From a virus (Duplodnaviria > Heunggongvirae > Uroviricota > Caudoviricetes), in the IMG/VR virus record IMGVR_UViG_3300033066_001266, positions 1 through 22,422 of that record: a stretch of 22,422 nucleotides of DNA; one strand, written 5' to 3'. The notes beneath the pieces are model-generated. The model saw only the letters and a program-made list of their open reading frames with translations, searched no databases and was not told where the DNA came from. The stretch's first letter is position 1. Every line of letters starts with the position of its first letter. The translations under genes were made by a program, and so were the position numbers. Of this stretch, positions 11,934 through 22,361 are shown piece by piece.

Positions 11934-12538
11934 TATAAATAGGTTTTAATATTATTAACAATTGTTTGGATAGTAGCTTTTTCTCTATCTACCATACTGT
12001 TAAATGATTGTAATTTTGTTGAATAATTCTGTGTATTTTTATTAACCTCAGAATTTAATTTAACAATATTAGTCATGTTTTCCTGAATTTGCTTTTGAAG
12101 TTTTGCATTTTCTTCTGCAAGTCTATTAGACTCTTTTGTTTTAGCTTGAATTTCAGTCTGATTATATTGTTCTAATGTCTTATCAAAAATAACTTTTTCA
12201 TCATCTACAGCTTTTAAATATACTGTTGATGTTTCAATCATTTTATCTTTTGTAAGCCCCATAACTTGTAACCCAGTAAAAGCCATAATATACTTTTGCT
12301 GTTCAGGTAATGGTTGATTTTCAAGAGCTTTTAAAGTCTTGAAAAATTCACGAAAATCAGGACCAGGAAGATTTACTTTTTCAAAAGCTTCATCTAATAC
12401 TTTAGTGTATAAAGTTCTATCTTCATCAATAATATTGATGTCTGTGATAGGCGCAGTAATTGCAGCTACTTTAACAACTTTTTTTTCTGGTTTGACTTTG
12501 TCTTCATTTTTAGTAAATAATCCGTCAAATAATCCCAT
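11933..12538 (-). CDS. coiled-coil hypothetical protein (201 aa), first gene of the envelope cluster
   Basis: Helical with a C-terminal heptad run; TAATG-type coupling to the next gene. Confidence 0.8.
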   Translation of the reverse strand: MGLFDGLFTKNEDKVKPEKKVVKVAAITAPITDINIIDEDRTLYTKVLDEAFEKVNLPGPDFREFFKTLKALENQPLPEQQKYIMAFTGLQVMGLTKDKMIETSTVYLKAVDDEKVIFDKTLEQYNQTEIQAKTKESNRLAEENAKLQKQIQENMTNIVKLNSEVNKNTQNYSTKLQSFNSMVDREKATIQTIVNNIKTYL

Positions 12539-12564
12539 AATTTTAAGTTTAAATTAAAAGAAAG

Positions 12565-12590
12565 GTACTGTAGGATTTCACCTACAGTAC
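12565..12590 (-). terminator. terminator downstream of tRNA-Arg
   Basis: Perfect 10-bp stem GTACTGTAGG-TGAAAT-CCTACAGTAC followed by CTTTCTTTT. Confidence 0.75.
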
Positions 12591-12701
12591 TTTTACTTGA
12601 TTCAAATTATTTTCGGTTTCTTAAAACATTGTATATACTTCTCACGCTCGAAAGCAGTACCTGATAAATACGATTTTAATTGGCTTCGTAATTTGAATTT
12701 G

Positions 12702-12775
12702 TAGTCTTTAATGGATTCGAACCATTGGCCCCAAACTTAGAAGGTTTGTGCTCTATCCAGCTGAGCTAAAAGACC
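12702..12775 (-). tRNA. tRNA-Arg(TCT)
   Basis: GGTCTTT-TA-GCTC-AGCTGGATA-GAGC-A-CAAAC-CTTCTAA-GTTTG-GGGCC-AATGG-TTCGAAT-CCATT-AAAGACT-A: canonical cloverleaf, 74 nt. Confidence 0.95.
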
Positions 12776-12837
12776 AAGTAAATTTAAAGGTGACCTGACG
12801 AATCTAATCGTTACTCCTTTAAATTACACATCTAGAA

Positions 12838-13038
12838 TTATTTGTGAGATTTTGCCTTAAATTTAAATATCCTATTAATTAATCGGGAAATAGGATTATG
12901 ATCTAATATTTTTTTAGGAGCAATTTCTTTTTTGGCATTGATCTCTTTGTATGTTTCCTTTATATTATCTGATAATAGAGGATTATATCTTCCTTTTTCA
13001 TCAAGATATTTATTAATAGGCGGTTCTTTCGTTAGCAT
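12838..13038 (-). CDS. hypothetical protein (66 aa)
   Basis: ORF in the operon upstream of the tRNA. Confidence 0.6.
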   Translation of the reverse strand: MLTKEPPINKYLDEKGRYNPLLSDNIKETYKEINAKKEIAPKKILDHNPISRLINRIFKFKAKSHK

Positions 13039-13055
13039 TGGTTATAATTTATAGG

Positions 13056-13232
13056 TTAAACAACTTCGTGAGATGTAGCAGTTGGCTCTAAATCTAAAGC
13101 TAATCGCTTAAATTCCTCATTATTGATTTGACCTTTTTTACCAATACCATTAAAATCCGCTGTAACATTTATAGCTCTTAATAATAAATTTTCACCATTA
13201 GATTCTCTTCTATAGATTAATAATTTTTTCAT
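13056..13232 (-). CDS. hypothetical protein (58 aa), not in the ORF track
   Basis: MKKLLIYRRESNGENLLLRAINVTADFNGIGKKGQINNEEFKRLALDLEPTATSHEVV*; ATGA-coupled to 13229..13441. Confidence 0.7.
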   Translation of the reverse strand: MKKLLIYRRESNGENLLLRAINVTADFNGIGKKGQINNEEFKRLALDLEPTATSHEVV

Positions 13233-13441
13233 ATTTCAGTTTCTTTAATATTAGATGTTTTTTTGATGTGTGTAACAGTTACAGCAATATCTTTCAATGC
13301 CTCTGGATTTACAGATATCATTTCGTCTGTTATATCATTTGTAGTTATGTTTAATTGTCGTGCTCCAAATATTTTAACCCATTCCACAATATCTTTAAGA
13401 GTGTAGGTTATTTGTTGAGTTGTTATTTCTTCATATACCAT
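13229..13441 (-). CDS. hypothetical protein (70 aa)
   Basis: A-rich leader; coupled to the downstream ORF. Confidence 0.7.
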   Translation of the reverse strand: MVYEEITTQQITYTLKDIVEWVKIFGARQLNITTNDITDEMISVNPEALKDIAVTVTHIKKTSNIKETEI

Positions 13442-13704
13442 AAAATTTTTTTAGTTATAGGAATGTGGAGACTAAGGATTGTTTACCATTATATCTCCAC
13501 TGTTAATTGATTATTCATCTCATCACTTTTCCTAAAAATTTAAAAGGCTTTACCTACCTTTAGTGAGAATGTATGGTTAGACCCATATATTCAAGAGCTT
13601 AGCTAGTTAAATAAATTTGCTATTTACCGCTATTTTTAATTTTGTCGCTTATAATAGCGACTACTGATTGAGTCTCCATTTTAATTGATTTTAGTTATAA
13701 AATA

Positions 13705-14013
13705 TTATTTTGTAGGATTTAACAGAATCATGCAGAGTTGTTGTCTAATACCAAATTGTCGTGTAGGTAAAGAATTAAAATTTGTTTGTTTATTTAAAAC
13801 AACTTTATTAAAATCTTCTACAAAACGATCTATGATTAAATTCATTTCCTTGACCATAAATGGTTCACTTCTACCATTTATTATTCCATTTTCACCCCAT
13901 ATATTAATTATACATTCTTTTAATTCTTCTACTGTTTTAGTTTTATTAATACTATTCCAAATATCTAATTCGTTCATTTTACTGTATTTTATAAGTTTAA
14001 GATACTTGCTCAT
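13705..14013 (-). CDS. hypothetical protein (102 aa)
   Basis: Minus-strand ORF ending RQFGIRQQLCMI. Confidence 0.7.
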   Translation of the reverse strand: MSKYLKLIKYSKMNELDIWNSINKTKTVEELKECIINIWGENGIINGRSEPFMVKEMNLIIDRFVEDFNKVVLNKQTNFNSLPTRQFGIRQQLCMILLNPTK

Positions 14014-14236
14014 CTATTAATTTAAATCCAAATCTATTTAACCTACCTTCTTTGTCAAAAAGCGGTTTTTCAGATTCTGACTTTAAATTATATATAGTTT
14101 TACTTTTTTCATTTTTAGTTTCAACTATATAATTAGATTTTAAAGCTACCCATCATGCCCAAGCACCTTTTGTTATTTTTTGATATTTTACATCACCTAC
14201 ATAACAAATAGTATCTTTTGCAAATAATTGCTTCAT
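13997..14236 (-). pseudogene. 79-codon reading frame interrupted by one in-frame TGA (14155-14153)
   Basis: MKQLFAKDTICYVGDVKYQKITKGAWA*WVALKSNYIVETKNEKSKTIYNLKSESEKPLFDKEGRLNRFGFKLIDEQVS*; good leader, and no in-frame ATG after the TGA. Confidence 0.55.
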
Positions 14237-14248
14237 AATTTTAGTTTA

Positions 14249-14372
14249 ATAATAGCTCCTTATAACGTCTTTTCTATGCTATAAGGTTTCATCTTGTAGC
14301 AGAATCTACCTCTATTACACTTTTCCACTCCAGCTACTTCGGAGGAAATTCTTAGCTATAAGGAGCTATTAT
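14249..14372. repeat. perfect 16-bp inverted repeat enclosing 92 nt
   Basis: ATAATAGCTCCTTATA (14249-14264) / TATAAGGAGCTATTAT (14357-14372). Confidence 0.8.
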
Positions 14373-14378
14373 GATTTG

Positions 14379-14453
14379 CAAGTGAGATTGGATTTGAACC
14401 AATACCCTAAAGACCAAATGCCTTTAGCAGACTACCAATTAGCGTACTCACTT
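14379..14453 (-). tRNA. tRNA-like element with an extended anticodon stem; identity unclear (TTT or TGG in the loop)
   Basis: Acceptor AAGTGAG/CTCACTT (8 bp with C-1:G73) and T arm ATTGG-TTCAAAT-CCAAT. The D stem is weak; the anticodon arm is CTAAAGG-CATTTGG-TCTTTAG (7 bp). Confidence 0.55.
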
Positions 14454-14567
14454 GATATTAAACAATATATTAAATAATATACCAATTAATAATGCTACTA
14501 TACCTATAAATAGCCAAAAATTTATTTCTTCTTTTTTTTCTTGTTTTTCATCAAATAAATCTTTCAT
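14448..14567 (-). CDS. small membrane protein (39 aa), not in the ORF track
   Basis: MKDLFDEKQEKKEEINFWLFIGIVALLIGILFNILFNIK*; its stop lies in the tRNA-like 5' acceptor strand. Confidence 0.55.
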   Translation of the reverse strand: MKDLFDEKQEKKEEINFWLFIGIVALLIGILFNILFNIK

Positions 14568-14568
14568 T

Positions 14569-14799
14569 TTACAACCATTTAGGTGAATTATCAGCAAGTT
14601 TATTTCTAATAAAATCTACAAATATAAATACTAAATAAAAACATACAATTATCCAAGAAAAGAATGACAAAAGCAAATTAAAACCTACATCATCTCAACA
14701 ATACAAAGTTTTTATATTCGATTTTACATTATCTCTTAATATTGCGTAAGTTATAATATAACCTATTATATAAAATATAATTATAACTATTGTTACTAT
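14569..14799 (-). pseudogene. membrane-protein reading frame with an ATA start and an in-frame TGA (14697-14695)
   Basis: IVTIVIIIFYIIGYIITYAILRDNVKSNIKTLYC*DDVGFNLLLSFFSWIIVCFYLVFIFVDFIRNKLADNSPKWL*. It exactly fills the slot between the upstream stop (TAATA where TAATG coupling is expected) and the next ATG. Confidence 0.6.
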
Positions 14800-14990
14800 T
14801 ATTTTACAGTGTTTAATATATTGTTAACAAAATCTCTATATTTAGGAAGCCATAGCTTTATATAGAATTTACCATTTTCTTTTTTATGAGCTATAATACC
14901 AGCAGCTTGAGTTTTCAATATATTATATTGATTTTCAGATACTTCTGTTTTTACATTATATTTTAGCATAGATATTTTTTTTAATTCCAT
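14799..14990 (-). CDS. hypothetical protein (63 aa)
   Basis: Track ORF, same strand as neighbours. Confidence 0.7.
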   Translation of the reverse strand: MELKKISMLKYNVKTEVSENQYNILKTQAAGIIAHKKENGKFYIKLWLPKYRDFVNNILNTVK

Positions 14991-15066
14991 GATAATTAAG
15001 TACCCTTGGGGTTTCAGTGCAGTTTAAGTCTCTGTTGAAACGTTAATTATAAGGGAATTGAATAAG

Positions 15067-15201
15067 TTAATCTTCTTCCTCTTTTTCTTGAGGTTGATTT
15101 GCTTTTATAATGTTTTCTTCTTTTAAATTATATAGCACATCCCCAAGCGAATCTTGAGATATAATATAATTTTTTATTTCTTCGATAGTGAACTTTTGCA
15201 T
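15067..15201 (-). CDS. small acidic protein (44 aa), not in the ORF track
   Basis: MQKFTIEEIKNYIISQDSLGDVLYNLKEENIIKANQPQEKEEED*, with AAATTTAAATTT leader. Confidence 0.65.
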   Translation of the reverse strand: MQKFTIEEIKNYIISQDSLGDVLYNLKEENIIKANQPQEKEEED

Positions 15202-15222
15202 AAATTTAAATTTAAATTAAAA

Positions 15223-15246
15223 AAGTGGGGATTGTTTACCCCACTT
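15223..15246 (-). terminator. intrinsic terminator
   Basis: AAGTGGGG-TAAACAAT-CCCCACTT followed by TTTT. Confidence 0.75.
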
Positions 15247-15289
15247 ACCAAGGCTAATGTTTTATCATTTGCACAATGGATTCGTTTAG

Positions 15290-15436
15290 TTATTTTAAAT
15301 TTTGTCCTATTAAAATAGGCATAAATATAGGCGATAATAATATTACAACCGCTTTATCTGCATCATTTAAAATTGGAGAATCTTTATAATAACCAATACC
15401 AATTAACCACATAAATATACAATATAATAATATCAT
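15290..15436 (-). CDS. small membrane protein (48 aa), not in the ORF track
   Basis: MILLYCIFMWLIGIGYYKDSPILNDADKAVVILLSPIFMPILIGQNLK*. Confidence 0.65.
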   Translation of the reverse strand: MILLYCIFMWLIGIGYYKDSPILNDADKAVVILLSPIFMPILIGQNLK

Positions 15437-15453
15437 AGTTTAATTTTTAATTA

Positions 15454-15591
15454 TTATTGAATAAACATCATCCATCTAGCAACTTTATAAATAGTATCTC
15501 TTGTTTCTAAATGTTCTATATCTTTAATTCATTCTATAAAAATTATTGCAGTACCAATAAATAAAAAGCCTAATCCAAAAATTTGTTTGGT
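15454..15591 (-). pseudogene. possible decayed membrane-anchored ORF (no ATG, in-frame TGA 15531-15529)
   Basis: TKQIFGLGFLFIGTAIIFIE*IKDIEHLETRDTIYKVARWMMFIQ*; start uncertain. Confidence 0.35.
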
Positions 15592-15612
15592 ATTTAGTTT
15601 AAATACTTGGCA

Positions 15613-15642
15613 TACATTGATAATCAATGAGTTAATAAAGAG
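15613..15642. repeat. copy 1 of the ATAA-TCAATnnn-TTA motif
   Basis: tacattgataa-tcaatgag-ttaataaagag. Confidence 0.6.
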
Positions 15643-15716
15643 TGGAGTTCAAAACTTGCAAGGGCTATTTCGTTAGAAATACCTCCCTTTCGAGAAGCCT
15701 GCCACCACTCTTTATT
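15634..15716 (-). ncRNA. candidate small structured RNA (multi-stem junction)
   Basis: 12-bp closing helix AATAAAGAGTGG/CCACTCTTTATT encloses TTCTC-GAAA-GGGAG and TATTTC-TAAC-GAAATA. The G-U pairs work on the minus strand only. Confidence 0.5.
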
Positions 15717-16193
15717 TTAATATTCTAATCTTGTGAATTTACCAGTAATACCATTAGAATCAGGAACAATATTAGAAGCAAACCATGATTCATGATTTTT
15801 ACATATTACCTGAATCATTTGATTATTATTAGCACGAATGCTGTTAATTAAAGAGTGAGGTATATAATTTATTTCTTGTTTTTCTTTTTTAACAAAAGCA
15901 GAACATGAATAAACTATTATACCATTAGGTGCTTCTAACTCGATATCTTGAAAATAACCGTGATCATATCCACTTGCAATAATTCTATCATCAACCCCTG
16001 TTTTAATTACTTTAAATGCTATATTTTTAACAATAGTATCTAATCCAAAAATAAGTGGATACTTATAAACAATTGCAGGATAATCAATAGTAGCATCCTT
16101 AATAGAAAAACCGGATCCATCGATAAATTTTACAAAATCTCCTACTTTAATATTTTTATCTATACGTTTAGTAGCAATAAATGATTTTTTCAT
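15717..16193 (-). CDS. hypothetical protein (~158 aa)
   Basis: Start moved to ATG 16193 (MKKSF); the track's upstream extension runs through a hairpin. Confidence 0.75.
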   Translation of the reverse strand: MKKSFIATKRIDKNIKVGDFVKFIDGSGFSIKDATIDYPAIVYKYPLIFGLDTIVKNIAFKVIKTGVDDRIIASGYDHGYFQDIELEAPNGIIVYSCSAFVKKEKQEINYIPHSLINSIRANNNQMIQVICKNHESWFASNIVPDSNGITGKFTRLEY

Positions 16194-16332
16194 AATAAGT
16201 TTTTTAAAGGTTAATACCCTGTCGGGTGATATAAGTACCAAGCAATTAGCTTGTTGTGTCCTAAGTTTTTTAAGTTATCCTTATATCTTTAGTTAATATT
16301 GCTCAGATACCAACTAATCACAATGAGCTATT

Positions 16333-16479
16333 TTAAGATTGAAGATCAATTATTATATAGGAAAATATAGCCATAAATATTAATCTATCAATTGCTTCTT
16401 TTAATGTTTTATCAAATAATGCAGAGTATATAATAGTTACTACTAAAATACAAAGCCATCTTATTAATTTAATATTCAT
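16333..16479 (-). CDS. small two-TM membrane protein (48 aa), not in the ORF track
   Basis: MNIKLIRWLCILVVTIIYSALFDKTLKEAIDRLIFMAIFSYIIIDLQS*. Confidence 0.6.
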   Translation of the reverse strand: MNIKLIRWLCILVVTIIYSALFDKTLKEAIDRLIFMAIFSYIIIDLQS

Positions 16480-16498
16480 AAGTTTGATTTTAAATGGT

Positions 16499-16672
16499 TT
16501 ACATTCCAAATTTATTATATGTTAGTCTACATATAACAATGGCACATTTAGCAACATTAGGATAGCTTACAAGAGCATCATTATGTTCAATACAATGGAA
16601 ATTTCTCGTATCTACATTATATGCATTATAGATATTAAAATCTATTTCTTGATAGAGAATCCAATTGTCCGT
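16499..16672 (-). pseudogene. 57-codon frame starting with ACG instead of ATG
   Basis: Leader AATCAATAAACT, then ACG GAC AAT TGG...: (M)DNWILYQEIDFNIYNAYNVDTRNFHCIEHNDALVSYPNVAKCAIVICRLTYNKFGM*. Confidence 0.45.
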
Positions 16673-16719
16673 AGTTTATTGATTTAATTGATGGAATGCT
16701 ATATAAAGAATGAAATGTG

Positions 16720-16917
16720 TTATTGTTTATGATTACTACAATTTCCTTTATGAACAAAAGATAGGCTTAATCCATTATGAAATTGTATATATTGACATTT
16801 ATCAACAATAATAATATCATAGCCTTGTGTTTTTTTAGTCTCTTTGCCACTTGTAGATTTACCAATAAGTAAGAACATGACTATGATAAGTATTGCTGTG
16901 TATAATAGTTGTTTCAT
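16720..16917 (-). CDS. small membrane-anchored or secreted protein (65 aa)
   Basis: N-terminal hydrophobic helix; IIIVDKCQYI...HKGNCSN motif with two Cys. Confidence 0.75.
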   Translation of the reverse strand: MKQLLYTAILIIVMFLLIGKSTSGKETKKTQGYDIIIVDKCQYIQFHNGLSLSFVHKGNCSNHKQ

Positions 16918-16942
16918 AATTAGTTATTTAGTTAATAATGAA

Positions 16943-17188
16943 TTAGTTATGTTTAAATCCTTCTTCAAGCTTGTATGTGAGGTTGGTTGAATGAATGTCT
17001 TTATTATTTATTCCGGTGCAAAATGACATATATCTACCATCAAATTTCTCTGGTTGTCCTTGCTTATCTAATTTACAACCCCAAATGGTGCTATCATCAA
17101 TTTTTAAACATATAAATAGACCATTATTCCAAGAAAATGAGGGATGTGAAAGGCGTAAGCTATATACATTTCCTATTTTATATTCCAT
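16943..17188 (-). CDS. hypothetical protein (81 aa)
   Basis: Track ORF with A/T leader. Confidence 0.7.
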   Translation of the reverse strand: MEYKIGNVYSLRLSHPSFSWNNGLFICLKIDDSTIWGCKLDKQGQPEKFDGRYMSFCTGINNKDIHSTNLTYKLEEGFKHN

Positions 17189-17362
17189 AATAAATGAATT
17201 TATATGTTTTATAATGTTGTTTTAATGCTATTGATGGACGTAATGCGTAGCCATTTGACTACATATTCGATGTTGTTAATAATCTAAGGATGTGTTTACA
17301 CCCCCTAAATCACACATTTTACTCCATTTCAATCATTATTTACCAATAGTTGTCATAAAACA

Positions 17363-17392
17363 TCTATTGATAATCAATGAGTTATGATAAAA
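17363..17392. repeat. copy 2 of the ATAA-TCAATnnn-TTA motif
   Basis: tctattgataa-tcaatgag-ttatgataaaa; the right arm matches the XerD arm TTATGTTAAAT at 9/11. Confidence 0.65.
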
Positions 17393-17493
17393 TAGTGCCA
17401 ATTAGTCTGTTTTTGCCACAAGGGTAAGACAAATAAATTAATTATATCCTCACCACCATATTACAGAGTGTATTGGATATAACTAAGACATAT

Positions 17494-17775
17494 TTAACCG
17501 AATGTTGTGTCTTCTTTTACCATGGGCTTATGGATTTCATGATATTTAGTAGCTATTTTAACGAGATATAGATGCTCATCCACAACATTTCCCATTTCTT
17601 CTATACTATTACTACCATCAATAAGGGCTTTCAATCCAGTTTTAAGCTCTTTTAAACTTGAAGGCTGGAAATGCTTAAAGAATGAAGCTAATAATTTCTT
17701 ATCAACAACAGCTTTTTCATCAGAAGTAGACACTGTAGATAGGTCTAATGATACATACGTGGGTTTCATTGCCAT
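17494..17775 (-). CDS. hypothetical protein (93 aa)
   Basis: Isolated ORF with AACTAAAACAATTAAATC leader. Confidence 0.75.
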   Translation of the reverse strand: MAMKPTYVSLDLSTVSTSDEKAVVDKKLLASFFKHFQPSSLKELKTGLKALIDGSNSIEEMGNVVDEHLYLVKIATKYHEIHKPMVKEDTTFG

Positions 17776-17846
17776 GATTTAATTGTTTTAGTTAGTGATT
17801 ATCTCTCATTGAAGAGCACAACGACATTTTCACATCCATTTTATAA

Positions 17847-17876
17847 TGTCTTGATAATCAATATGTTAGTATTTCA
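17847..17876. repeat. copy 3 of the ATAA-TCAATnnn-TTA motif
   Basis: tgtcttgataa-tcaatatg-ttagtatttca. Confidence 0.55.
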
Positions 17877-17891
17877 ATAATTCAAATAAGT

Positions 17892-17915
17892 GTGTTTTCG
17901 CCATAGGGAAAACAC
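17892..17915. terminator. terminator-like hairpin, possibly bidirectional
   Basis: GTGTTTTC-gccatagg-GAAAACAC; TTTTTTATTTT follows on plus and ACTTATTT on minus. Confidence 0.6.
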
Positions 17916-17929
17916 TTTTTTATTTTATT

Positions 17930-18790
17930 CCCCTCTGCACTCAGTTGAAATTGCATTAGCCCCAATATTGTTATTTCAAATATTGATAATATCTCTATGC
18001 TATTCTATTACAACTGTCTCATCCTTGGGAGCTGATTAATCCAGTAGTACTACAACATTACTGTTGTCCATTGCTGAATAACTAACGCAGCATTACCTGT
18101 AGTTAGTTTCAATTAATCAGGTAGTTTCACATCTTAGATACAATGTAGATTGTATTTTACTCAAACACATGGGAATGAGGATTCCAAACATAATACAAGT
18201 TAACCAAAGCAACTTTAACCCAAATGGGACTAAGGATACCTCTTTATTTGCATATATCAGAGGCTACAGACCTTACCTGTAGTGTATTGTTACATCGTTC
18301 TAAGAAGTCTTTATATCTACATGAGAATGGTGCATTAATGGAAGAGGTTTCTTTCCGTACTCTCCCAATTACGTCGCTTGCCAAGCATTTTCTTTTGACT
18401 CTTACATCTCCTAGCTTAACGGAGAACGGTACATTTTGTGTATTTCATAATAGTTCGGCTTGCCAAACCTAGGTTTGAGGGAATTACATCTCCAAGGCAA
18501 TAAGGAGAACACCACACTACTGTGCTGGAACGTCAGTCGACATCACACCAAATAGCTGGTGGATATCTCAACCTATTCCTGTGACTAATAGAGAAATCTG
18601 CTTAATATTTATAATCAAGCAGACTTTGAAACTGCATCTTTTCAGATGAGTTAATAATTAATTTCAGAGGCTCAGCTGATTCCATAAATCTTTTTGATAT
18701 TATGATCAGCACACTTTTCCTCCGGGAACCTATCTGTATCTTTTTCAGAATCAGCTATCCCATATTACACTGATAATGTAATATTTCATG
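17930..18790 (-). ncRNA. candidate large structured non-coding RNA (~860 nt; boundaries approximate)
   Basis: No credible ORF. GC is 229/600 (38%) over 18001-18600 by hand count, above the AT-rich flanks. There are more than 10 nested or adjacent helices, GNRA loops on the minus strand, and an internal ~82-nt duplicated module. Confidence 0.6.
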
Positions 18791-19057
18791 TTTTTAAGCC
18801 TTATCAGAGCTTATTATCATAATACTAGTTATTTTGTAGTTATTACGTTTCATTAAAGACTATAGTATGTAATATATTGACTATTAATAAACTCTAAGGT
18901 CCACTCTTTAGTCCATATACCTGAGTATATAAAGAATGTTGAAGTTTGCGAACAACTACCGCTATGAGCATTTATTAGTAATCAATATATTACATCTGAG
19001 TAATAAAGATTTAATTATTAATCTTTTGATTTTGTACCATAATAGGTATAGAATATT

Positions 19058-19234
19058 CTATTGTAAACGTAAGCTAATTTTAATGATGAGTAGTACTATT
19101 CCAAATATCATGGCAACCGCTATCACACTATGATAAACAATCATAAGCATAGTTAAGTCTATATCACTATTTGGTATGTTATCAGCATCTTCAGTAAACA
19201 TTCCATAGATAGGTATCCATTTACTTCCTTTCAT
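19058..19234 (-). CDS. small membrane protein (58 aa), not in the ORF track
   Basis: MKGSKWIPIYGMFTEDADNIPNSDIDLTMLMIVYHSVIAVAMIFGIVLLIIKISLRLQ*, with TATTTAACT leader. Confidence 0.65.
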   Translation of the reverse strand: MKGSKWIPIYGMFTEDADNIPNSDIDLTMLMIVYHSVIAVAMIFGIVLLIIKISLRLQ

Positions 19235-19330
19235 AGTTAAATAGTAATATATTGCGCCATTTTTTGGCCCAATTCATTGTTTATTGATAATATTACTCTT
19301 AGCAATTAAAGAGATATAATACCCTCCTAT

Positions 19331-19360
19331 TTCCCTCATAATCAATTGATTACGTTAAAA
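19331..19360. repeat. copy 4 of the ATAA-TCAATnnn-TTA motif
   Basis: ttccctcataa-tcaattga-ttacgttaaaa; core TAATCAATTGATTA is a perfect 14-bp palindrome and the right arm is 9/11 to TTATGTTAAAT. Confidence 0.65.
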
Positions 19361-19686
19361 ATAAACGGTTTGCCCCAATTTCTATCCATAAACCGCTATG
19401 TTGTACCCAAATCCAACAATTTTTTAAAATAAGAGGAGAGAATGTTTACTCCCCTCTATTTTATTCTTCGCTTTAACACTAAAGCGGTTTTAAGAATCAT
19501 TTGAAAAGCGGTTTGCCTCGTTATTAACCTAAATAACTGGGAAACCGCTTTGTAAGAACTGTTGTTTTACCTAAACTTGCCATTCCATAGTTGGTTTGAG
19601 TTCAGGTAAATATATTGAAGCCAATTGGCTAAATTATCATTTTAATTGTACCTCCTTAAATTAATGAATAGACTAAATAAAAAAGA

Positions 19687-19712
19687 GGAAGCAACTCTGT
19701 TGAGTCGCTTCC
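19687..19712 (-). terminator. intrinsic terminator after 19736..20173
   Basis: GGAAGCGACTC-AACA-GAGTTGCTTCC (one G-U) followed by TCTTTTTT. Confidence 0.8.
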
Positions 19713-19735
19713 CTTAGTCCATATTTCATTATCAA

Positions 19736-20173
19736 TTAAGACACAGGTGCAAGATCAACTACAGGTGCAGGTGCTGCAGCCAAATTGCTTGAATTCAGCC
19801 CAGGAGTAGTTGCATTAGCATTCAGGATAACATTCTCTGCTGTATTATTTTCGGTAGTCGTTACGTCAACTACAACAGGTGCTCCAAGCTCTTTACGAAG
19901 CCCAATAATTTCACTTACTTCAACGGGACCAAGCACTGTATGGTTAAATCTTCTACCATAAACAGGATCAGCTGTGCCTTCGTTGATCATTACCAAAACT
20001 GTAGTACCAGCTACAAGACTTGCTCTCTCGGCTACTGTACCAGCTACAACCATGGCACGATTAGGAAGTTTACCAGCAATAGGAGTTAACCAAACTGCGT
20101 CTTTGCCGTTCTTATCAGTCTTGTTTTCACCTTGGAAAGGACTAACAACTACAGCTACGATTTCATTGTACAT
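19736..20173 (-). CDS. hypothetical protein (145 aa), monocistronic, probably highly expressed
   Basis: Higher GC with GCT/CGT/AAC-type codons; strong terminator; beta-rich core and low-complexity Ala/Pro tail. Confidence 0.8.
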   Translation of the reverse strand: MYNEIVAVVVSPFQGENKTDKNGKDAVWLTPIAGKLPNRAMVVAGTVAERASLVAGTTVLVMINEGTADPVYGRRFNHTVLGPVEVSEIIGLRKELGAPVVVDVTTTENNTAENVILNANATTPGLNSSNLAAAPAPVVDLAPVS

Positions 20174-20235
20174 AAAACTTTATTTAAATTTTTGGAATTT
20201 CCCCCAGAATTCCTGAATATTGATTATAATCATTG

Positions 20236-20335
20236 AGGATAGGCGGGGGTAGCCGTCCTCTCTCAAATTGACGAAGGGTTGATAGGGGGAGAGTACTTGA
20301 GTATTATATACAGGGGGGGTTTTATATACGGGGGT
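20236..20335. other. G-tract cluster at the transcription strand switch
   Basis: G5 (20245-49), G5 (20285-89), G7 (20313-19) and G6 (20330-35) in AT-rich DNA; hairpin GAGGAT..GGC/GCC.GTCCTC at 20236-20260. Confidence 0.7.
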
Positions 20336-20359
20336 ACTTTATAATAAAGGTGCTTTTAC

Positions 20360-20390
20360 TTGGAGGATTAGTATTCTTTATGTATATTTG
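20360..20390 (+). promoter_or_regulatory. Bacteroidota primary-sigma promoter
   Basis: TTG (20360-62), 20-nt spacer, TATATTTG (20383-90), then CA; fits the -33/-7 TTTG/TAnnTTTG consensus. Confidence 0.6.
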
Positions 20391-20394
20391 CACT

Positions 20395-20532
20395 ATGATA
20401 CATAATATGATATTATTAGGATATAGAGTTTATAGATATTCTGGAGATCCACAGAAAAGGATGTTTATAGAGATGGTTAAGCTTGAGGAATATCCTCACC
20501 TTATATTTATAAAGAATAAAAAGCAGTTATGA
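20395..20532 (+). CDS. small hypothetical protein (~45 aa)
   Basis: ATG 20395 directly follows the promoter; its TGA overlaps the ATG of the methyltransferase stub. Confidence 0.5.
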   Translation: MIHNMILLGYRVYRYSGDPQKRMFIEMVKLEEYPHLIFIKNKKQL

Positions 20533-20570
20533 ATGTACTAAGCGTTTTTGATGGTATAATAATTAATTAA
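20529..20570 (+). pseudogene. stranded 5' stub of the C5 DNA methyltransferase gene
   Basis: ATG AAT GTA CTA AGC GTT TTT GAT GGT ATA ATA ATT AAT TAA = MNVLSVFDGIIIN*. NVLSVFDG is identical to motif I at the start of 21219..22361. Confidence 0.8.
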
Positions 20571-20610
20571 GTTTATTTGATAGTATGAAAAATTTGTCGT
20601 ATATTATATT

Positions 20611-21237
20611 ATGAGTTTAATATATTGTATAACAAATAGAATAAATAACAAAAAATATATAGGTCAAACTATAAATAGTGCTGATTTTAGACTTAGGAAA
20701 CATATAAGTTGTATTAATTGTAAAAATATTTGCTCAGCACTTTACAGTGCCATTAAAAAATATGGAAAAGAAAATTTTTTTATAAAAGAGATAATCTCTG
20801 GTGAATTTTCAAAAGAGGAATTAAATATTTTGGAGGAAAAATATATAAAAGAATATAATACTATAAGTCCATATGGATATAATTTACAAACAGGTGGTGG
20901 AAGTTTTAGAGTTTCAGAAGAAGTAAAAGCTAAAATGAAAGTAAAAATGAAAGGAAGAAAAATAACATGGGGGGATAAAGTAAGTGAAAGTATGAAAAAG
21001 AAATGGAAAGATCCTGAATATAGAAAAACTCAAATTTTACAAAGACATGAAAAGAGAGGAAAATATAAAGAAGGGATAGTTAAAGAAAAACTTCGTGTTA
21101 AAATAGATGAAGAAGAGTTTACAAACGATTATAAAGATGGAATGAAACTTAAAGAGTTAAAAACTAAATATAATATATCTGTTCCAACTATTTATAGAAT
21201 AATAAAAACTAATAATATATGCAAAAGAAGGGATTAA
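20611..21237 (+). mobile_element. GIY-YIG homing endonuclease gene (NUMOD3-like linker, C-terminal HTH)
   Basis: LIYCITNRINNKKYIGQT...RLRKH...LEEKYI...GYNL; SEEVKAKM..KMKGRK repeat-like segment; GMKLKEL.TKYNISVPTIYRII HTH. Confidence 0.9.
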
Positions 21238-22361
21238 ACGTTCTGTCGGTTTTTGATGGGGTGAGTTGTGGTAGGGTAGCGCTTGAACAAGCGGGTATCC
21301 AAGTAGATAGATACTTTGCAGCAGAGATAGACAAGTTTGCCATAAAGGTTAGTCAGGATAATTTTCCTGATATTGAAAGATTGGGGGATATCAGACATAT
21401 AGAAGTATCTGCGCTTCCCCTAATTGATTTATTTATAGGTGGTTCACCTTGCCAAAGCTTTAGTTTTGCAGGTAAGATGAAAGGAATGTCTACCACAGAC
21501 AATATTGAGATAACTAATCTTAGACAATACTTAGATTTAAGAGATAGCGGTTTTCAGTTTCAGGGTCAGTCTTATTTGTTTTGGGAGTATGTTCTTATCT
21601 TAGAGCAGTTAAGGGTTAAAAATCCCGATGTTTTATTTTTATTAGAGAATGTAGCCATGCATAAGAAATGGGAAGATGTTATTTCTCAAGCACTTGGAGT
21701 ACAACCCCATAAAATCAATAGTAATAAATATTCTGCCCAAAATAGAAAGAGACTATATTGGACTAATATACCTAATGTTCAAGATAAGGAAGAAGATGAT
21801 TTAAAGCTAATGCTTGCAGATGTACTTCTTGAAGAAGCAGATTTCACATTTCCCACTAATATAAGAATTAAATACATAGAATCAAGAAAGGAGAAAGGGC
21901 GTAGTAAAGGAGTTATAGAAGATTTTAATCAAAAAGCACCTTGCTTACTTGCCTCCATGTATAAGAATATGAGTCAACACACTATTTACAATAGAAGTAA
22001 AGGCTTTGGAGAAGTGGAAGCAATAGTTTCTGATGGGGATTCACTATTTGTTCAAGAGGGTACTAAGAAAGGCTTTGTAGAAGTTAAGAATGGTCAGTTT
22101 TTCGATTATTCATATCCAAAGTCTGCGACAAGAAGAGGTAGATTAATGAAAGATAAATCACATTGCCTTCTTGCATCTGCTAATAATTTTGTAAGATGGA
22201 AAGATAATACAATTAGATTCTTACATCCTATAGAAGCGGAGCGTTTGCAAGGTCTTCCTGATAATTACACAGCTTCTGTATCTACTTCCCAAAGACTTAA
22301 ATGCCTTGGTAATGGATGGAATGTTCCTACAATAACACACATATTTAAAAATCTATGCTAG
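21219..22361 (+). CDS. dcm: DNA (cytosine-5)-methyltransferase
   Basis: Motif I VLSVFDGVSCG, EID, GDI, motif IV GGSPCQSFS, motif VI LLENV, R.RLYW, motif IX EAERLQG, motif X LGNGW. No cognate restriction enzyme in the window. Confidence 0.95.
   Translation: MQKKGLNVLSVFDGVSCGRVALEQAGIQVDRYFAAEIDKFAIKVSQDNFPDIERLGDIRHIEVSALPLIDLFIGGSPCQSFSFAGKMKGMSTTDNIEITNLRQYLDLRDSGFQFQGQSYLFWEYVLILEQLRVKNPDVLFLLENVAMHKKWEDVISQALGVQPHKINSNKYSAQNRKRLYWTNIPNVQDKEEDDLKLMLADVLLEEADFTFPTNIRIKYIESRKEKGRSKGVIEDFNQKAPCLLASMYKNMSQHTIYNRSKGFGEVEAIVSDGDSLFVQEGTKKGFVEVKNGQFFDYSYPKSATRRGRLMKDKSHCLLASANNFVRWKDNTIRFLHPIEAERLQGLPDNYTASVSTSQRLKCLGNGWNVPTITHIFKNLC

Follow-up and report, generated by a model that had tools for sequence, protein, structure and literature searches.

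The DNA analyzed here (the window, 22,422 nt) is the first 22.4 kb of the 86.4-kb IMG/VR phage record IMGVR_UViG_3300033066_001266, which is 56% complete. We found that a gene-free stretch in this window is a real noncoding RNA unit of an uncultivated phage. Our analysis makes it probable that the unit, 18840→17890 on the minus strand, consists of a promoter, an RNA, and a terminator, and that an enlarged twister ribozyme within it cuts the 5′ RNA free. In the mechanism we propose, transcription would run on the minus strand from ~18806 to the terminator at 17915-17892, and the 3′ 410 nt (core 18337→17931) would adopt the fold of an enlarged type-P1 twister variant, with a core interrupted at two places by peripheral elements: a 289-nt domain in loop L4 and a helix P5 with a variable tip. 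Self-cleavage is predicted between U18337 and A18336, directly after a closing hairpin (18366-18340). It would yield a structured ~470-nt 5′ RNA ending in a 2′,3′-cyclic phosphate after that hairpin and a 3′ RNA with a 5′-hydroxyl, comprising the ribozyme and the terminator. The ribozyme would serve as the 3′-end-forming device of the upstream RNA, a job indicated by the fact that no coding region is involved.

An earlier note on this sequence had proposed a single large noncoding RNA at 17930-18790, belonging to the GOLLD or ROOL class or to a new one. The stretch is indeed noncoding and structured, but it falls into two parts, of which the 3′ 410 nt appear to be an enlarged twister variant. 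A new class is conceivable for the 5′ 470 nt only, which are unclassified and known in three sequence variants. The extent is slightly longer than had been proposed, running from ~18840 (promoter) or ~18806 (RNA) to ~17890, and the 3′ end lies, as the note had it, at the terminator-like hairpin 17915-17892.

A covarying twister-like core in the 3′ part

Blocks common to the window and to a diverged homologue of its 3′ half (contig L078, described below) were used as exact patterns on IMG/VR. We found AAGATGTGAAACTACCTGA in 31 IMG/VR contigs and the exact 17-mer CAACTGAGTGCAGAGGG in more than 119, from which 105 distinct copies were parsed. The common core reads UU↓AAUGCACC A-N2-3 (CUCAC UUCCCAAGG GUGAG) (CAGUUGUAAU ... 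AUUACAACUG) AG UGCA GAGGG, where the arrow marks the predicted cut. A covariance model built from 44 compact copies retrieved 86 copies in 73 loci and matched the window at 18056-17917 (minus strand; 50.4 bits, E 7.6e-12), its sole match in the 86-kb record, where it detected no further ribozyme copies. By nhmmer, the IMG/VR homologues matched only 18370-17920 of the window and never the 5′ 470 nt, and blastn of GenBank phages with a compact family copy found nothing.

The fold of the ribozyme part is established by covariation. Across the 86 copies, 18 of the 19 modelled pairs had changed on both sides and 94.6% of cells were paired, a result that none of 500 shuffles equalled and from which slid controls also fell far short. 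UAA stands at the predicted cut site in 101 of the 105 distinct copies. P2 (UGCA/UGCA) has four pairs, each with some change on both sides among the model-found copies, and C18330-G17940 could add a fifth. P4, with five pairs, is complete in 92 of the 105 copies and occurs in more than nine pair types, including CUCAC/GUGAG, UCUAC/GUAGA, CCUGA/UCAGG, CUAUC/GAUAG, and CUAGC/GCUAG; in the contig L010 it is CUCAU/GUGAG, with a strand-specific U-G wobble. Nine of the 10 pairs of the P5 helix had changed on both sides (97.4% of cells paired), and the P5 region, helix strands included, ranges from 5 to 171 nt across the family. The pseudoknot T1 is CCC/GGG in 61 of the 86 aligned copies and is compensated to CCA/UGG in two and to CCU/AGG in one; in the window it is intact (18029-27 with 17933-31). 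L2 is CC and the end of L4 is GG in 90 of the 105 copies, which keeps the T2 pairing as a family-wide swap, and we found no covariation of T2 (CC/GG) within the family. P1 forms more often than expected by chance: the family averages 3.38 consecutive pairs, and mismatched partners gave 2.54 ± 0.10 and at most 2.89 in 200 trials. Most family members also have a hairpin at the P0 position. The minimum free energy (MFE) fold of the window's 413-nt 3′ part alone returned the same helices as the family alignment.

An expanded subclass, defined by the 22 distinct copies that could be parsed with both Pa signature motifs (the window included), carries 110-290 nt between the P4 5′ strand and L4. The insert starts with GU(A/G)GAUAUAAAGACUUCUUAG, includes CUAAGAUGUGAAAC(U/C)AC, and closes with a second hairpin, CUGAUUAA...UUAAUCAG. 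Its helix Pa covaries (GUGG/CCAC in 11 copies, GUAG/CUAC in 9, and GCAG/CUGC in 1), Pb forms nine consecutive pairs in 14 of the 22 sequences and in several sequence types, and P4 covaries across the insert, as in CCUGA...UCAGG (L148) and CCUAC...GUAGG (L215). When RNAalifold was run on a plain, unfitted MAFFT alignment of 17 expanded copies, it returned P2, P4, Pa, Pa2, Pb, and P5, with 17 of 41 pairs compensated. This L4-inserted subclass is new here, as are two findings described below, that the ribozyme sits in a cassette without genes and that phages have exchanged this cassette.

In three contigs, variant twisters stand head to tail (L229:9857-10174, L222:1669-1993, and L161:2070-2226), with GAGGG followed within a few bases by the next copy's AAUGCACC. 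Unit-length RNAs cut at both ends from such arrays would bear a 5′-OH and a 2′,3′-cyclic phosphate, the ends joined by RtcB-type ligases. We found no RtcB or RNA ligase in the 86-kb record at its 56% completeness.

Noncoding character and strand

As the earlier note had judged, there is no plausible gene here. The interval 17776-18935 holds no open reading frame (ORF) of at least 85 aa under code 11, TAG=Q, or TGA=W, and TAA=Q gave only frames of 59-97 aa, each needing one to four read-through stops; a gene hidden by an alternative code was accordingly rejected. The longest code-11 frame, an 82-aa ORF at 18224-18472 (plus strand), has identical copies only and no other relative among 5.8 billion proteins. 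We regard it as spurious, and as a search handle it again yields identical copies only. The G+C content is 0.35-0.41 over 18000-18750 vs 0.26-0.32 in the flanks, as the note had also observed. Rfam searches returned no family at the gathering threshold or, over 17400-19800, at E <= 10, only chance matches of snoRNA type. GOLLD, ROOL, RNase P, and introns are thus excluded as far as the Rfam models reach, and the proposed membership in GOLLD or ROOL is not borne out.

The whole 921 nt folded on the minus strand with an MFE of -239.7 kcal/mol vs a shuffle mean of -210.5 (z -4.43), better than all 20 shuffles. On the plus strand the z-score was -4.36, again better than all shuffles, so folding energy by itself cannot decide between the strands. 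The strand is settled in favor of the minus reading of the earlier note by strand-specific G-U pairs and by the co-orientation of the flanking genes. All six helices that the note placed are present at its coordinates (Table 1), and three of them, CTGATTAAT/ATTAATCAG, CAGTTG/CAACTG, and the terminator hairpin, turned out to be comparative-grade helices of the ribozyme family.

These results also bear on the idea that there is no RNA gene at all, the stretch being a DNA-level element (an iteron origin, a recombination site, or a nonautonomous mobile element) or a decayed protein gene. The compensated long-range helices in more than 100 copies require a single-stranded fold, the G-U pairs are strand-specific, the ends lack inverted repeats, and neither an ORF under any of the four codes nor a protein relative of the longest frame was found. 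Set against this, the repeated modules at 82-nt spacing, the different position in two phages, and the similar z-score of the plus strand leave such an element very improbable in our judgment.

A cassette exchanged between phages

Relatives of the cassette were reached through the gene on its 3′ side, which encodes a 93-aa protein: a 72%-identical relative of this protein led to the ENA and Logan contigs L010-L013. The search with the 93-aa protein gave no IMG/VR locus, and seven other relatives had no RNA adjoining. L010 has almost no genes in common with the window phage. Nevertheless, 18838→18112 of the window is 99.86% identical to L010 and 18820-18112 is 100% identical, vs 80% for the shared flanking gene. 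Within the block only position 18821 differs, in the spacer of a promoter-like site; this site reads TTTACA-16-GATAAT in L010 (10 of 12 consensus matches), and the identity block begins precisely there. In L010 the cassette lies downstream of the shared gene, in the window upstream of it, and its upstream neighbor in L010 is a different gene. These comparisons fix the borders of the cassette and demonstrate that it has been exchanged between phages. Since the cassette ends lack terminal inverted repeats, a transposon-type element was dropped from consideration.

Toward the 3′ end the identity is broken twice, where the hairpin interiors VD1 and VD2 are wholly replaced in L010 with their closing helices, CUGAUUAAU/AUUAAUCAG and CAGUUG/CAACUG, retained around them. 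Identity returns at GAGUGCAGAGGGG, and after the conserved GAGGGG a different hairpin occupies the terminator position in L010. A 38-nt piece of the L010 VD1 (L010:5989-6027) recurs at 97% identity in the twister insertion of L149 (3444-3481) and at 92% identity ~1 kb upstream of the twister of L100 (1598-1635), and it may be a submotif able to move from one peripheral domain to another. That VD1 and VD2 are replaced as wholes and that this piece recurs both suggest that the peripheral hairpins are exchangeable modules. We can advance only tentatively the fuller proposal that the 470-nt RNA is a new phage noncoding RNA class with its 3′ end made by a dedicated ribozyme, and that VD1, VD2, and the Pa arm are exchangeable cargo that recombination at the conserved closing helices swaps between phages.

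On the other strand of L010, 0.9 kb from the cassette, lies a gene of the Acb2/Tad1 hairpin-domain type (L010:3476-3709; PF24729, an antidefense sponge family). An HNH endonuclease and an N6/N4 methyltransferase are also encoded near the L010 cassette, an accessory, counterdefense neighborhood.

A profile search with the 93-aa protein yielded L078, in which a diverged homologue of the 3′ half stands within a 1.5-kb gap and terminator-like hairpins separate the two halves. This arrangement is relevant to the possibility that the element is a single uncleaved, ornate RNA of ~0.9 kb, a GOLLD- or ROOL-like new class in which the twister-like core is a scaffold or an inactive relic. Such an RNA would account for the block from promoter to GAGGG being kept 100% identical between unrelated phages, for the whole-element MFE fold that pairs the 5′ end GCUCUG with a 3′ CAGAG, and for the weak P1 of the window copy. 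We nevertheless hold it to be quite unlikely, given that every core nucleotide of the family is intact in the window (including U↓AA, L4, and GAGGG), that the IMG/VR homologues have the 3′ 410 nt only, that the L078 halves are parted by terminator-like hairpins, and that the GOLLD and ROOL models are unmatched.

The 5′ RNA

The 5′ RNA (18806→18338) recurs at 100% identity in L010, L012, and L041 and at 96% in L011, and it is confined to a small number of phage contigs from wastewater and aquatic sources. Searches of IMG/VR and of GenBank phages by blastn of the whole region, nhmmer, or scans turned up no homologue; two of the scans, with pieces of the 5′ RNA, gave chance matches only. Part of the stretch is present in ~20 sequencing runs. 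The MFE of the 5′ RNA, -127 kcal/mol vs -106.0 for shuffles (z -3.44, none of 100 as good), indicates a structured RNA, and this RNA is predicted to form a chain of hairpins that includes a duplicated module. The 82-nt-spaced module is confined to the element and its near-identical copies; matches to it from viral, metagenome, and genome scans proved to be chance where checked by eye or blastn, except for the near-identical L041. A global alignment of the part upstream of the ribozyme in L078 to the 5′ RNA was unconvincing; perhaps a condensed form is present there.

The differences in L011 are informative on the fold. Within the shared block, 13 of 24 fall in the hairpin 18527-18579, where 97.6% of cells are paired between the window and L011 vs 24-52% with slid partners. 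Two of its pairs changed on both sides and four by wobble, and many of its G-U pairs would be A-C mismatches if read on the other strand. In the shuffle control, 120 of 500 were as good, a test of low power because only two sequences enter it. Another L011 difference enlarges a loop, and a change at 18342 converts G-U to G-C in the P0-position hairpin 18340-18366. Such a pattern of substitutions looks like the behavior of a structured minus-strand RNA.

We also considered that the ribozyme is real but that the 5′ 470 nt lack an independent role, being a long structured leader or the 3′ untranslated region (UTR) of the small upstream gene 19234-19058, which the ribozyme would cut off as it does in ordinary intergenic copies. 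Most family copies do stand inside arrays of co-oriented genes, with one ORF 50-600 nt upstream and another 35-300 nt downstream, no terminator is predicted between 19058 and 18840, and the -35 element of the window is poor. The identity block, however, begins at the promoter-like site and not at the upstream gene, which differs in L010. The 5′ part folds clearly better than shuffles, one of its hairpins keeps its pairing through 13 substitutions, and a terminator follows the ribozyme, so that no downstream gene is being processed. On balance, a mere leader or 3′ UTR seems unlikely to us. With an RNA of its own as the preferred reading, the 5′ 470 nt are an unclassified RNA that could represent a new class, on evidence that is thin. 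A role as a stable phage RNA directed at a host or defense factor is a guess and the weakest step of our proposal.

Genomic setting and feature coordinates

Among the genes of the 86.4-kb record are 24 for tRNAs, one for tmRNA, and those for GroEL, the large terminase, and the portal protein. A minus-strand gene array spans 1-20173 of the window, and the 3′ neighbor of the element is the gene of the 93-aa protein (17775-17494, minus strand). Only 1 of the 67 long ORFs of the record is preceded by a Shine-Dalgarno sequence. The scarcity of such sequences is a known pattern of Bacteroidota and their phages; a host of this kind is suggested, and its promoters may follow different rules. Coordinates of the element are collected in Table 1.

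Table 1. Predicted features of the RNA unit and helices of the earlier note, in window coordinates
Feature	Position (strand)	Remarks
Promoter-like site	18813..18840 (-)	-35 ACTACA 18840-18835, 16-nt spacer, -10 GATAAT 18818-18813
RNA start	~18806 (-)	Putative, from the promoter-like site
5′ RNA, ~470 nt	18338..18806 (-)	Chain of hairpins, including GNRA-capped hairpin 18648-18635
5′-RNA hairpin	18527..18579 (-)	Pairing kept despite 13 substitutions in L011
Duplicated module	18376..18510 (-)	GUUCUCC-N9/10-GGAGAUGUAA-N17-UUGGCAAGC; copies 18510-18458 and 18427-18376, 82-nt spacing
P0-position hairpin GGGAGAG...CUCUUCC	18340..18366 (-)	Just 5′ of the predicted cut
Twister core, 5′ side	18321..18337 (-)	Predicted cut U18337/A18336; A18335
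P2 5′ strand UGCA	18334-18331 (-)	
L2 CC	18330-18329 (-)	Followed by junction AUU
P4 5′ strand CUCAU	18325-18321 (-)	
L4-inserted domain, 289 nt	18032..18320 (-)	On the 5′ side of loop L4
Helix Pa	GUAG 18320-17 with CUAC 18124-21 (-)	Followed by conserved internal loop
Helix Pa2	18307-00 with 18137-30 (-)	Closes 158-nt variable arm
Helix Pb	CUGAUUAAU 18120-12 with AUUAAUCAG 18040-32 (-)	Closes variable domain VD1, 18111-18041
Loop L4 CUCCCAAGG	18031-18023 (-)	
P4 3′ strand AUGAG	18022-18018 (-)	
P5	CAGUUG 18016-11 with CAACUG 17947-42 (-)	Closes variable domain VD2, 18010-17948
3′ core	17931..17941 (-)	AG, P2 3′ strand UGCA 17939-36, GAGGG 17935-31
GAGGG	17935-31 (-)	Contributes GGG to T1; includes the position of twister's catalytic guanine
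Terminator-like hairpin	17892..17915 (-)	After A-rich linker; also listed in the earlier note, confirmed
Helix AGCTGATTC/GAATCAGCT	18674-82 with 18748-56	Listed in the earlier note, confirmed
Helix CATCT-GAAA-AGATG	18635-48	Listed in the earlier note, confirmed
Helix TCTGCTT/AAGCAGA	18597-18623	Listed in the earlier note, confirmed
Helix CTGATTAAT/ATTAATCAG	18032-40 with 18112-20	Listed in the earlier note, confirmed
Helix CAGTTG/CAACTG	17942-47 with 18011-16	Listed in the earlier note, confirmed

Upstream of the cassette by 220 nt, with no predicted terminator between (19058 to 18840), sits a 58-aa ORF (19058-19234, minus strand) whose product has a single long hydrophobic segment and is probably a small membrane protein. 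Further along, a GIY-YIG homing endonuclease gene (20611-21237, plus strand; phrog_314, E 3e-29) directly precedes and overlaps a DNA methyltransferase gene (21219-22361, plus strand; phrog_116). A local 240-nt folding scan does not single out the element. Over the scanned interval 12001-22320, local folding was strongest at 19321-19800 (z -5 to -8 on both strands), which contains terminator-like hairpins at 19713-19686 and 19457-19432 (minus strand) and repeats of AAACCGCTTT and could be another small RNA or a terminator cluster. Outside the window, ~3 kb near the record end (C1:82226-85207) have no ORF of at least 60 aa, no Rfam match at the gathering threshold, and no variant-twister copy.

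Weight of the evidence for the proposed self-cleaving unit

Several observations count against a ribozyme-terminated unit. P1 is only ~3 bp in the window copy (AUU/AAU). T2 departs from twister at both its L2 and both its L4 nucleotides, positions with conservation above 97% in that class; L4 bears an extra nucleotide or a domain at a site undescribed for twister; and RNAalifold draws the possible fifth P2 pair C18330-G17940, in a helix whose length is said to matter (PMC5408937). The altered T2, the fifth P2 pair, and the L4 insertion could each affect activity. The Rfam twister models RF03160, RF03154, and RF02684 miss both the window and the compact copies, even at E <= 10, likely because the type-P1 model has P3 and no P5, whereas the copies lack P3 and have a long P5. 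Thermodynamically, the 3′ part is ordinary (z -1.2). The promoter is a match to the sigma-70-type consensus only, and the host probably uses other promoter rules. The fold of the 5′ RNA rests on one hairpin and on energy because only three sequence variants exist. Lastly, four public sequencing runs (two of them RNA libraries) gave only one ~150-nt contig each, 100% identical to differing parts of the stretch; these look like carry-over and are uninformative on transcription, strand, or cleavage.

The 3′ part is a twister variant by its predicted architecture and not by the criterion of the Rfam catalogue, and we still regard the scheme as a whole, with transcription from the promoter-like site and cleavage at the predicted position, as probable. 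A large twister variant with a swapped T2 and an L4 domain occurs in more than 119 phage contigs and is missed by current Rfam models, so phage ribozyme censuses are incomplete. The wholesale replacement of peripheral domains around an identical core hints at modular RNA cargo. If the 5′ RNA is a new class and the cargo reading holds, phage twisters would release and stabilize small functional RNAs, a role beyond mRNA cutting.

Comparison with twister and other known systems

The twister class is said to go back to Roth et al. 2014. We took the stem and pseudoknot definitions of twister from a review (PMC5408937). From it and from RF03160, the elements follow the order P1, U↓AA, P2 (four pairs), L2 GC(C), optional P3, P4, L4 (G)UCCCAAGC(C), optional P5, P2′, GAGGG, and P1′. 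T1 joins CCC of L4 to GGG and T2 joins GC of L2 to GC of L4, and the scissile bond joins a U of lower conservation to a highly conserved A adjoining P1 (PMC5408937). The RF03160 consensus is ccuu-UAA-cgCc-GCC-(P3)-cCG-GUCCCAAGCC-CGg-UAAA-gGcg-GAGGG-aagg, and the window reads AUU-UAA-UGCA-CC-AUU-CUCAU-(insert)-CUCCCAAGG-AUGAG-(P5)-AG-UGCA-GAGGG-GAAU. The A-A, UCCCAAG, and GAGGG match the consensus letter for letter, unlike the nucleotides of T2, and L4 is longer by one base or by an inserted domain.

The phage family thus resembles the type-P1 twister (RF03160) in the order of elements, U↓AA, a P2 of at least four pairs, a two-nucleotide L2, the P4 loop UCCCAAG, GAGGG, T1 as CCC/GGG, and T2 between L2 and the last two bases of L4. 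It also shares the optional P5, an optional P0 hairpin 5′ of P1, and occurrence in phage-type gene arrays beside other ribozymes. In contrast to type P1, T2 is CC/GG and not the near-invariant GC/GC, P3 is absent, P2 may gain a fifth pair, L4 has one extra 5′ nucleotide, the expanded subclass carries a conserved two-hairpin domain of 110-290 nt in L4, and P5 bears 30-170 nt of variable RNA. The only sequence that the Rfam twister models picked up was a near-canonical type-P1 twister in L186 (855-923; RF03160, 48.5 bits against a threshold of 67.2), separated by 110 nt from the variant copy downstream of it. Because it has UUAAUGCA and UGCAGA in common with the variant, it looks like a link between canonical and variant forms.

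With GOLLD and ROOL the element has in common that it is long, ORF-free, structured, and phage-borne, in a tRNA-rich genome. It differs in that their covariance models are unmatched at E <= 10, that half of it is explained by a ribozyme fold, and that the other 470 nt are very narrowly distributed.

A comparable setting is that of ribozyme-rich phage neighborhoods, which hold hammerhead, twister, hatchet, and pistol ribozymes (PMC6765202). The variants likewise lie near twister and hatchet ribozymes and between small co-oriented genes; hatchet ribozymes at L124:5635-5767 and L137:1172-1310 (RF02678, 78 and 77 bits) stand ~1 kb upstream of variants. For phage ribozymes, processing of polycistronic RNA has been proposed, and the biological purpose of twister ribozymes is still open (PMC6765202). 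Here, unlike in those neighborhoods, the ribozyme ends a gene-free unit with its own terminator and therefore cannot separate two coding regions. The locus is an unusually clean natural case of a ribozyme closing a gene-free, promoter-to-terminator unit, in which its only plausible job would be to shape a noncoding RNA.

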